From: Pseudomonadales bacterium
GTDB taxonomy: Bacteria; Pseudomonadota; Gammaproteobacteria; Pseudomonadales; Azotimanducaceae
Direction: 5' to 3'
DNA: 64,000 bases
Assembly: GCA_965200175.1 (NCBI GenBank)
Contig: OZ241345.1
Location: forward strand, 2,575,684 to 2,639,683
This document shows positions 48,927-51,782 of the stretch, piece after piece. The translations under genes and the position numbers were made by a program. The stretch's first letter is position 1. Each line of letters starts with the position of its first letter. A model generated the notes under the pieces. It did no database searches. It saw nothing but the letters and a program-made list of their open reading frames with translations, and had not been told where the DNA came from.

Positions 48927-49613
48927 TCAAAACGGCACCTCCACCGCCGCGCACAGAAAGGCCATCAGCGGCCGGGCCTTGGCGAAGGCATCGGCCGCCT
49001 CATCGACGAAGCCCGCCGACGCCGCGTTGGCGACCGGGAAGTTGCAGGCGGCGATGAAGTCCTTGCGCTTGATGTCCTCAATGTGGGGCACATCCTCCGA
49101 ATAGCCCCTTGGCGGGCGTTTGAGGCGGGTGCCGCCGAACTCGAAGGCGCCGTTGAAGGTCCGCGACGCCTTGACCCGCCGCCAAGCGTCCGGGTGGTCG
49201 AAGATGCGCTCGCGGATGCGCTTCAGCGCGCCCGGTTCCGGGCGCCACATGCCGGCGGCGAGGAAGCAGCCGGCGGTTTCGATGTGCAGGTAGTAGCCCG
49301 GCGCATGGACGTCCTTGCCCAGCTCGTGGCGGAACTGAATGCCGATGTTGGTCTTGTAGGGCGCGCCGCGATGGAAGCGGGTGTCGCGGTAAACGCGCAT
49401 CAGGGAGCCACCCTGCCGCTTGGGGATGGCCGTGAAGTGCGGCGACACCGCCTCCAGGCGAGACCCCATCGCGGCGATGAAGTCCAACGCCGGCTCCAGC
49501 ACGCACGCCTCGTAGCGGTGCTTGTTCTCCTTGAACCAATCGCGGTTGTTGTTCGCCTCCAGTTCGGCGAGAAAGCCGATGGCGTCGTCCCCAAAGCCGG
49601 TGAAGTCAGGCAT
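48927..49613 (-). CDS. DUF2461 (TIGR02453) family protein
   Basis: FLAELEANNNRDWFKENKHRY...SLMRVYRDTRF matches the family signature as I recall it. Confidence 0.7.
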   Translation of the reverse strand: MPDFTGFGDDAIGFLAELEANNNRDWFKENKHRYEACVLEPALDFIAAMGSRLEAVSPHFTAIPKRQGGSLMRVYRDTRFHRGAPYKTNIGIQFRHELGKDVHAPGYYLHIETAGCFLAAGMWRPEPGALKRIRERIFDHPDAWRRVKASRTFNGAFEFGGTRLKRPPRGYSEDVPHIEDIKRKDFIAACNFPVANAASAGFVDEAADAFAKARPLMAFLCAAVEVPF

Positions 49614-49637
49614 CCCAAGCCCCTCGCCGCAGGCTGC

Positions 49638-50153
49638 TCACGTCAGGGCCTGCACAAGTTGATCAATAACGGCCTCCGCCTTGGCGCGCATCTCCGCATC
49701 GGTGGCGTCCTGGATGGGATGCGCCACGAACACGCAGCGGGCGTCCTTCATGCCCAGCGCCGCTGCTTGGGTGGCGGCGGCATCGACAAACTCCGTCGAG
49801 GCGATGGAAACCGACGGCTTGCCCTGAATCTCGAACCATACCGTGTCATGCAAACTGCACGTGGTACAGGAGCCTCAGTCGGCCAGCGCCTCGACCACGA
49901 AGTCGTTGTCGCGGGCGATTTGGGCGCGCAGGTCGGCGGGCGCCGGCTTGGCGAAGGTCGGCTTCGCGTAGCGGTTGACGCGAATGCCGGGCACCTCGGC
50001 CTTGAGCAGCGCCTCCAGCCGGTCGAGCAGCACGTTGCCCTTGGGCTTGGAGATGTCGAGAAAGGCGACGTTGCCGGCAATTCGGCCGCTGCGCGGGGTC
50101 ACCCGCCGCTCCACTGGCACCCGTTCGTCGGTGGGATCAAGAATGGTGGTCAT
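49638..50153 (-). CDS. UGSC-family selenoprotein candidate; in-frame TGA (Sec) at 49875-49877
   Basis: ORFs 49875..50153 and 49638..49853 share one frame. The read-through gives ...VVEALAD-U-GSCTTCSLHDTVWFEIQGKP..., about 171 aa. A hairpin starts 9 nt after the UGA. Confidence 0.6.
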
Positions 50154-50201
50154 GGCTCCTGCCTCCTGTTGTTGGCCTTGCGTTCATTCGTTTCAAGCCG
50201 T

Positions 50202-51782
50202 TCAGGCTTCCTCAATGATCTTCGAGACCGGCATCGAACCGGTCTCGCCAGTCACCCAGCCGTGGAAGGCGCCGGAGAACTTGCCGGCCTCCGCACCCGC
50301 CACGACGATGTGAATGTCCTCATCGCGGCGGAACTTGGGCAGCTTGCGGCCCCGCGCCTGCTCATCCATCGCTTCGACCACGGCGGGCTTGAAGCCCACT
50401 GCGGAGACCTCATCCGCGGCCAGCTCCTCAACGGACCGCGCCGTCACTGCCTGGATGCGGGCGCGAATCTCGGCCTTGCCGTAGCCGTCGCGGGCGAAGG
50501 TGTCCACATGCTCCGGGGCGACGACCAGCAGCGCTTCCGTGGCAAAGTGGGCTCGCGGGTGGAAAATGCTGTCTAGGCACAGCCCGAAGCTGCCCGCCAG
50601 GTGGTCACCGGTGCGGGCATCCTGATCGACGATCAGGGTGGGGCCGCTGCTCATGGCGAAGGCTGTCACCACGGAGTCCCCGGCGGCGAACCCCCGCTCC
50701 ACGTGCAGCGGCGTCCAGGGATTGCGCTCCTCCCATTCCGGGAAGCACATCGTGAACTTCATCGGATTGCCCAAGGTGGAGCGCTCCGTGCCGCCGGGCC
50801 GCGCGCCGCCGATGTTGCGGATGGCCAGGCGCAGCGCCCGGCCGATGGTGGCGTTGGCGCGGCTCCCTTGGCCGAGCGCCCCGAGCTTCATGTTCAGCCC
50901 TAAGCGCTCGCGCACCGGGCCGTTGACGACGATCACCGGGCTGGCCCCCATGGTGGTGGCCATGACGCCGTGAATGTTGAATTCGTCCGTGCAGACCGCC
51001 TCCAGGCAGGCGATGACCACCGGCAAGTGTTCCGGCCGGCAACCGGCCATGACCGCATTGATGGCGAGCTTCTCCACCGTCGCCTCACCCATGTTGGGCG
51101 GCACCGTGGCCACCGCCTCCTGGGCGTCGCGCCCGGTGCCTGCGAGCATGCGCAGCACCCGCTCGGGGGTGGGCGGCACCAAGGGCAGGCCGTCGCTGAA
51201 GCCGAGATCGAACATCAGTTCAACCTCGTCGTCGCCCGCCCCCACCTCAATGCGGCGGGCGCGCAGGGGACTGTTCTCGGACTCCGCCCGCAGCCGGTCG
51301 GCAATCAGCGGGTCGGCGGAGCGGGAGCCGCAGCCGGGCCGCCACTCGGGATAGGTCCCCCAATCCAAGCCCAAGGGGGTAAGTTTCAGGGCTTCCGCGA
51401 AGGCCTCGGCCCCTTCCTGCCATTCATCGCGGGCGAAACCCACCAGCTTGGCGGTTGACTGCCCCTTCGCATCCACCAGGTGCAGGGTCGGCACGATCTC
51501 CACGTCGTAGGCGAAGGAGACCTTGAGGGATTCATCATCGAGCAGCGGCACAGTCAGGCCATGCCGCTGCGTGAGGACGCGATTGCCTTCCGCGGTCTGG
51601 CCGACGACGAAGAAATCCACAGCAGCGCCCAGCTCTCGGTACAGCGCCTCGACGAGCGGCATGACGTCGTTGCAGGTGGGGCAGTCCTCCTTGACGAAGC
51701 AAATCAACGCCGACCGTGCGCCCGGAAAGCTGTGCTCCCCGCCCCCTTCGTCCTCCAACAGAAATGCGGGCAACGCAGACAT
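50202..51782 (-). CDS. Thioredoxin-fold (CPTC) domain fused to a large uncharacterised C-terminal domain
   Basis: N-terminus ALICFVKEDCPTCNDVMPLVEAL is redoxin-like. I do not recognise the following roughly 380 aa. Confidence 0.6.
   Translation of the reverse strand: MSALPAFLLEDEGGGEHSFPGARSALICFVKEDCPTCNDVMPLVEALYRELGAAVDFFVVGQTAEGNRVLTQRHGLTVPLLDDESLKVSFAYDVEIVPTLHLVDAKGQSTAKLVGFARDEWQEGAEAFAEALKLTPLGLDWGTYPEWRPGCGSRSADPLIADRLRAESENSPLRARRIEVGAGDDEVELMFDLGFSDGLPLVPPTPERVLRMLAGTGRDAQEAVATVPPNMGEATVEKLAINAVMAGCRPEHLPVVIACLEAVCTDEFNIHGVMATTMGASPVIVVNGPVRERLGLNMKLGALGQGSRANATIGRALRLAIRNIGGARPGGTERSTLGNPMKFTMCFPEWEERNPWTPLHVERGFAAGDSVVTAFAMSSGPTLIVDQDARTGDHLAGSFGLCLDSIFHPRAHFATEALLVVAPEHVDTFARDGYGKAEIRARIQAVTARSVEELAADEVSAVGFKPAVVEAMDEQARGRKLPKFRRDEDIHIVVAGAEAGKFSGAFHGWVTGETGSMPVSKIIEEA

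Follow-up and report, generated by a model that had tools for sequence, protein, structure and literature searches.

The 64,000-nt stretch of DNA analysed here (the window) very probably contains a single 171-aa selenoprotein gene of the UGSC family where standard ORF calling reports two fragments. The evidence as a whole is best explained if an in-frame UGA is decoded as selenocysteine (Sec), and the encoded protein would have a redox function. The original prediction had put forward one selenoprotein of about this length on the basis of the letters of the window, and this part of it is supported by the length of the joined product and by family models that span the TGA codon. All of the checks that it had suggested gave a favourable outcome, and its base-pairing register is the sole point to be corrected. 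In addition, comparative analysis of the locus revealed a tightly linked upstream partner gene and a predicted protein fold that bear on the possible role of the family.

Reading of the minus strand together with the ORF listing places ORFs 49875-50153 and 49638-49853 in the same frame, with the TGA at 49875-49877 as the sole interruption between them, exactly as had been claimed. The upstream ORF encodes 92 aa and starts with an ATG at 50153 that is preceded by AGGAGG, and the downstream ORF encodes 71 aa and has TTG as its only start. Translation through the TGA, taken as U, gives a product of 171 aa, ...DFVVEALAD-U-GSCTTCSLHDTVWFEIQGKPSV... The gene's own stop is also TGA, and therefore the sequence context must decide which UGA specifies Sec. 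Coordinates of the features discussed below are collected in Table 1.

Table 1. Features of the UGSC locus (window coordinates) and genes of the Sec machinery found in the same contig
Feature	Position	Strand	Remarks
UGSC-family selenoprotein CDS	49641..50153	(-)	171 codons; ATG at 50153-50151; Sec = codon 93 (proposed)
In-frame UGA (U93)	49875..49877	(-)	within invariant motif D-U-G-S-C-T-x-C-x-x-H-D
True stop of the UGSC gene (TGA)	49638..49640	(-)	no hairpin behind it; from strand reading and translation
Core SECIS hairpin (predicted)	49847..49861	(-)	6-bp stem CGUGCA/UGCAUG, GUU loop; MFE fold
Extended SECIS region (predicted)	49836..49869	(-)	lower 7-bp helix, partly conserved; over synonymous trough codons +2 to +13
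Partner gene	50202..51782	(-)	526 aa; 48 nt upstream of UGSC start, same strand
DUF2461/TIGR02453 gene	48927-49613	(-)	starts 24 nt downstream of UGSC stop
selA			502 bits vs cutoff 268
selB			401 bits vs cutoff 242
selD			250 bits vs cutoff 125
tRNA-Sec			73 bits vs cutoff 47; anticodon TCA (ARAGORN)

The family assignment made in the original prediction is borne out by profile searches. With Cys in place of U, the joined translation reaches 163.1 bits against the equivalog model NF041046 of NCBIfam, "UGSC family (seleno)protein" (curated cutoff 125), and it matches the Pfam model PF24696 (UGSC) end to end with 160 bits, residues 3-171 covering model positions 1-171 of 172 across the TGA. A six-frame search of the genome with the UGSC model recovers the gene at 155.6 bits with one TGA inside the match. 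No other Pfam family matches the protein at E <= 10, and a PDB sequence search with it gave no match.

The "UGSC-containing protein" was reported in 2007 as a selenoprotein of unknown function, with Hyphomonas neptunium among its carriers (PMC1976440). In the Global Ocean Sampling data it was found in 2008 to be among the most abundant selenoprotein families, with 255 Sec forms against 21 Cys forms and a higher frequency in non-marine samples, and was described as a protein with a "likely" thioredoxin-like fold that is sometimes fused to an "Unknown_1" domain (PMC2398784). The literature places it with the UxxC selenoproteins and gives no function for it (PMC2398784, PMC13188914), and reviews of 2022 and 2026 still list it among the uncharacterised selenoproteins, now tied to NF041046. 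The family has thus been known since 2007-2008, and the recoding itself is not new. The window gene is an ordinary member of this curated and published family: it exceeds the curated cutoffs over its full length, shares the U-G-S-C motif and the Sec/Cys dimorphism in which Sec forms predominate, and likewise belongs to an aquatic/environmental proteobacterium. Nothing essential distinguishes it from the published description, to which our analysis adds as refinements a flavodoxin-like predicted fold and the tightly linked partner gene.

Conservation of the UGA codon and of the protein encoded downstream provides the first line of evidence for recoding. A scan of genome contigs for UGSC relatives returned 539 related stretches, the best 80 of which were taken as orthologous loci. 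These belong to Candidatus Azophilus, Azotimanducaceae and other Pseudomonadales MAGs and are 68-96% identical to the window protein in alignments over residues 1-171. TGA occupies the aligned codon in each of these best 80 loci, and the peptide that follows it, GSCTTCSLHDTVWFEIQG, is almost invariant among them; orthologues do not end at this codon. TGA is also kept at the distant Sec-type loci, five of which were found via truncated gene calls of ~95 aa, and in all seven distant Sec-type gene copies (7/7). Among 151 sampled genomes of the order, a match was obtained in 13, and every one of the 14 matches that span the motif (14/14) holds exactly one TGA. The alignment with Cys at the U position, which had been suggested as a check, was obtained for 37 full-length Cys-type homologues (36-47% identity), and all of them have Cys in this column. 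Across a 51-sequence alignment the motif D-[U/C]-G-S-C-T-x-C-x-x-H-D is invariant, corresponding to D92, U93, G94, S95, C96, T97, C99, H102 and D103 of the window protein.

These observations bear directly on the alternative that the TGA is a genuine stop, whether from a nonsense mutation, through pseudogenisation or through an assembly error, and that the downstream frame is a decaying remnant. Such a stop would agree with the splitting of the gene by standard ORF calling and with the many truncated entries of ~94 aa in public catalogues, but TGA is conserved at exactly this codon in 80/80 orthologous loci and in seven distant copies, and the downstream protein stays near-invariant. Moreover, synonymous sites of the downstream half are free to vary outside the hairpin, the pattern expected of a translated region under purifying selection, and both family models, NF041046 and PF24696, run across the TGA. 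We therefore consider a genuine stop at this position extremely improbable.

The second line of evidence is an RNA hairpin located immediately 3' of the in-frame UGA. The RNA segment quoted in the original prediction is indeed located nine nt after the UGA, at 49865-49835, and the minimum free energy (MFE) fold shows a hairpin in this place; however, another register is better supported than the one proposed (ACCA/UGGU, CGUG/CACG and CA/UG around a 7-nt loop). When the proposed register was tried on the 26 Sec-type sequences its A:U pair failed in 10/26 cells and its outer helix was just 75% paired, and it was rejected as inferior to the MFE register. In the MFE fold of 66 nt around the UGA, an apical hairpin CGUGCA-GUU-UGCAUG stands above a 7-bp lower helix. 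The apical stem begins 13 nt after the UGA. Counting from the U of UGA, the G and U of the loop fall at nt 23 and 24, positions that we take to be those of the SelB-contacting G23 and U24 of E. coli fdhF. Like the fdhF-type SECIS of E. coli, the UGSC hairpin is part of the coding sequence and closely follows the UGA, and its apical stem UGCA/UGCA is presumably similar to the upper stem of fdhF; the clustering of selA, selB and selC in the genome adds to the likeness. The differences from the fdhF element are a loop of 3 nt (GUU or GUG) instead of 4 nt, and an unpaired A before the stem where fdhF has the bulged U17. Another difference from the fdhF-type SECIS is that no Rfam model matches the UGSC hairpin: at E <= 10, scanning 49600-50200 yielded nothing beyond chance matches and no SECIS family.

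Comparison of 26 distinct Sec-type sequences, distant lineages included, confirmed that the hairpin is conserved. In the apical stem 100% of the cells are paired. A single pair varies there, with G•U in 14 sequences, G-C in 10 and A-U in 2; all changes in this stem are one-sided changes that preserve pairing, with no fully compensatory double change. In the lower helix 82% of the cells are paired, with double changes at three of its pairs. The hairpin lies over a trough in synonymous variation: in 81 sequences codons +2 to +13 have a normalised synonymous entropy of 0.18, compared with 0.81 elsewhere (Mann-Whitney p = 4e-8), and the 11-column window with the lowest synonymous entropy in the whole UGSC gene is formed by codons +2 to +12. 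Several codons in this zone are fixed or nearly so, namely TGC and AGT (81/81 each), TTG (78/81) and GTA (77/81). The folding energy of the same 19 nt ranges from -5.6 to -10.9 kcal/mol in Sec-type genes versus 0 to -3.0 in Cys-type genes, and the latter have neither the hairpin nor the GU loop. Part of the conservation of the apical stem could be due to the invariant C-S-[LV]-H-D peptide. In a genome as rich in GC as this one, the single sequence folds no more stably than shuffled sequence (z = -0.65), and the case for the hairpin therefore rests on the comparative evidence.

The genome also has the machinery required for Sec insertion. The window is part of a single 3.93-Mb contig, estimated to be 98% complete, in which selA, selB, selC and selD, named as a check in the original prediction, are all found above their cutoffs (Table 1). 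Genes selA and selB and the tRNA-Sec gene are adjacent in one compact cluster at contig positions 1,440,542-1,443,910 (-). The selD gene, at 1545346-1547811 of the contig, encodes a fusion with an NADH-dehydrogenase-like flavoprotein at the N-terminus, and its active-site motif is CGGC, with no Sec. An "Ndh-SelD fusion" is common in marine metagenomes (PMC2398784), and the selD of our host is of the same type.

The machinery helps to weigh another alternative, namely that the UGA specifies Trp, Cys, Gly or the like, and not Sec, through an altered code or near-cognate suppression. The catalogue entries P0002 and P0003, which have G and W at the Sec position, would agree with it, though the simplest explanation for them is that the gene callers used codes 25 and 4. 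Against an ordinary amino acid, TGA is used as a stop in this genome, including at the end of the UGSC gene and of its upstream neighbour, a dedicated tRNA-Sec (TCA) is encoded beside selA and selB in a genome that also has selD, and the hairpin is specific to Sec-type genes and located at the canonical distance. We regard this alternative as very improbable.

Sec insertion at codon 93 and binding of SelB, which we infer from the conserved UGA, the Sec-specific hairpin, the machinery and the Cys homologues, would proceed as follows. The hairpin in the coding sequence would recruit SelB carrying Sec-tRNA(Sec), and this complex would outcompete release factor 2 at the UGA at 49875-49877. At the terminal UGA, which has no hairpin, translation would end.

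The structure of the UGSC protein was modelled by AlphaFold2 from the 51-sequence alignment, giving a model of five beta-alpha units with a pLDDT of 92.4 and a pTM of 0.86. In this model U93 is placed at the N-terminus of helix 94-109, straight after strand 85-91. Flavodoxins, FMN reductases, WrbA and lumazine synthase are among the 50 Foldseek matches listed, with TM scores of about 0.5, and none of these 50 is a thioredoxin-fold protein. The predicted fold is thus tentatively a flavodoxin-like five-stranded alpha/beta sandwich rather than a thioredoxin-like one, the assignment being tentative because TM scores are only about 0.5. The suggestion of a thioredoxin fold (PMC2398784) differs from the model, which lacks the beta-alpha-beta-alpha-beta-beta-alpha core of thioredoxin-fold oxidoreductases. 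The protein does share with them a (C/U)xxC motif at a helix N-terminus, U93-C96, a likeness that supports a similar way of working but not membership. Other invariant residues, F122, Q129, H145, P146 and Q148, come after strands 4 and 5; judging by the topology of the model, they are expected to form a cluster with the Sec along the sheet's C-terminal edge.

Analysis of the gene neighbourhood identified a single conserved partner. A homologue of the gene upstream of UGSC lies upstream in the same orientation at 86 of 86 loci, being directly adjacent in 84 of them, and it is the sole neighbour conserved across all 86. At each of the 80 orthologous loci (the best 80 of 539) it is the gene immediately preceding UGSC, with the same orientation. 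At the two remaining loci, L106 and L107, another gene lies between the partner and UGSC; for the first UGSC copy of L106, it is an opposite-strand gene with a metallo-beta-lactamase fold, located between UGSC and a 553-aa partner. At locus L109 (2365-4004) the partner is split into calls of 434 aa and 119 aa with overlapping ends, an apparent frameshift that is possibly a long-read assembly error. None of the other neighbours sought (trxB, transporters, DUF2461) is general. A transporter-like ORF occurs in 22/80 loci, trxB is not found adjacent to UGSC at the window's own locus, and the DUF2461 gene follows UGSC in just 11/80 orthologous loci and hence is probably not part of the UGSC module.

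The partner protein combines a recognizable redox domain with a large region that has no family match. Its N-terminal ~130 aa form a TlpA/ResA-like thioredoxin domain with a CPTC motif as its CxxC, residues 1-130 of the model superposing on ResA with a TM to target of ~0.8 (E = 2e-9). However, TlpA and ResA are membrane-anchored periplasmic proteins of ~140-180 aa, whereas the partner's domain is fused to a ~390-aa extension without a family match and its NCBIfam score is far under the family cutoff (28 bits vs 170). The domain is followed by a poorly predicted linker that holds an invariant PGCGS, and by a C-terminal domain of ~336 aa with many invariant residues, including two Cys, C248 and C346. 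This C-terminal domain has no match in Pfam and NCBIfam, even at E <= 10, or among PDB sequences, where the thioredoxin domain alone was matched; likewise, all 50 Foldseek matches listed for the full partner model are to the thioredoxin domain. The partner has more than 7,800 relatives among database proteins, and these are named only after the thioredoxin part ("TlpA family", "redoxin", "peroxiredoxin").

Two of the loci are informative about the composition of the module. In the Cys-type locus L102 (2576-5522) the genes follow the order trxB, partner, UGSC(Cys), with overlapping stop and start codons. The partner there has 491 aa and is 38% identical to that of the window over the full length (E = 3e-112), and the gene overlapping its start is a genuine trxB (TIGR01292, 384 bits vs a cutoff of 343). 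The flanks of this operon hold TctC/TctA tricarboxylate-type transporter genes and a GntR/FCD regulator; this setting may hint at an organic acid as the substrate. At locus L106 (6730-8288) the second UGSC (Sec) copy is located behind a 364-aa variant of the partner that lacks both the thioredoxin domain and PGCGS. This variant indicates that the C-terminal domain is the core of the partner and that a thioredoxin relay is not obligatory.

The linkage with the partner and the trxB gene of L102 suggest a thioredoxin-driven reductase module. As judged from gene neighbourhood, motifs and predicted fold, U93 and C96 of the UGSC protein probably alternate between the selenol/thiol form and a selenenylsulfide. 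UGSC would then be the small, redox-active subunit of a module whose other gene is the upstream partner. Electrons would pass from NADPH via thioredoxin reductase, where trxB is present, to the CPTC domain of the partner and from there to the Sec/Cys centre of UGSC, which would in turn reduce a substrate or a disulfide on the C-terminal domain of the partner, the one with the two invariant Cys.

A different function is conceivable for a protein that is recoded in the same way, namely binding of a metal, a metalloid or a cluster (e.g. Fe-S, Cu, Hg or As) through U93, C96, C99 and H102. The pattern U/C-x-x-C-x-x-C-x-x-H-D, which could hold a metal equally well, is invariant in Sec- and Cys-type members alike, the three Cys/Sec residues and the His are arranged on one helix face like a ligand set, and the predicted fold is flavodoxin-like and not thioredoxin-like, all of which would suit a binding protein. 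On the other hand, the universally linked partner has a domain of the thiol-disulfide oxidoreductase type and one locus includes trxB in the operon, and for this reason disulfide/selenenylsulfide chemistry fits better than metal binding; nor are metal-resistance or cluster-assembly genes conserved near the UGSC loci. We rate metal binding as unlikely, though well short of negligible.

The proposed redox module invites comparison with the glycine and D-proline reductases (GrdA/GrdB, PrdB, with trxB-trxA as part of the operon). There, too, a small redox selenoprotein is encoded beside a larger protein, and a thioredoxin reductase gene is found beside the module, as in some UGSC loci, but the likeness is one of analogy only. 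The UGSC protein has no sequence similarity to GrdA (PF04723) or to GrdB/PrdB (PF07355) in Pfam at E <= 10, and kinship with GrdA, GrdB or PrdB was accordingly rejected at the sequence level; chains of these reductases are also absent from the 50 structure matches listed for UGSC. The hosts differ as well, being aerobic bacteria of the Pseudomonadales type for UGSC and Stickland fermenters for the two reductases. It is possible, although somewhat doubtful, that UGSC and its partner form an undescribed reductase driven by thioredoxin (by thioredoxin reductase at some loci), in which UGSC would be the shuttle and the ~336-aa domain a new catalytic fold, and which would represent an aerobic aquatic counterpart of the glycine and proline reductases.

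The same genome has a second gene of the UGSC family with an in-frame TGA (L111, contig positions 1219973-1220398, (-)). Its motif, H-U-G-S-C-T-T-G-T, lacks the third Cys and the H-D pair, and it scores 142 bits with the Pfam UGSC model and 94.8 bits, under the cutoff of 125, with the NCBIfam model. No partner gene is located upstream of this copy, and the RNA after its TGA folds differently.

In public metagenome catalogues the family is represented mostly by truncated N-terminal stubs (about 100 of ~94 aa). A few entries do cover the full length and show Gly or Trp in place of Sec, apparently as a result of gene callers changing to codes 25 or 4. In the annotation of the window, the two ORFs should be joined as a single CDS in which codon 93 is marked as a Sec exception.

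The recoding event described here is a textbook one and is already covered by a curated NCBI model. What is new is the tight link of UGSC to a thioredoxin-fused protein with an unannotated domain, accompanied by trxB in at least one operon, and the prediction of a flavodoxin-like instead of a thioredoxin-like fold for UGSC. The residual interest of the locus lies in the unannotated domain of the partner and in a possible thioredoxin-driven reductase module. UGSC ranks among the most abundant selenoprotein families of aquatic metagenomes and is listed without a function (PMC2398784, PMC13188914); the link to the partner and the predicted fold make the question of this function more tractable.
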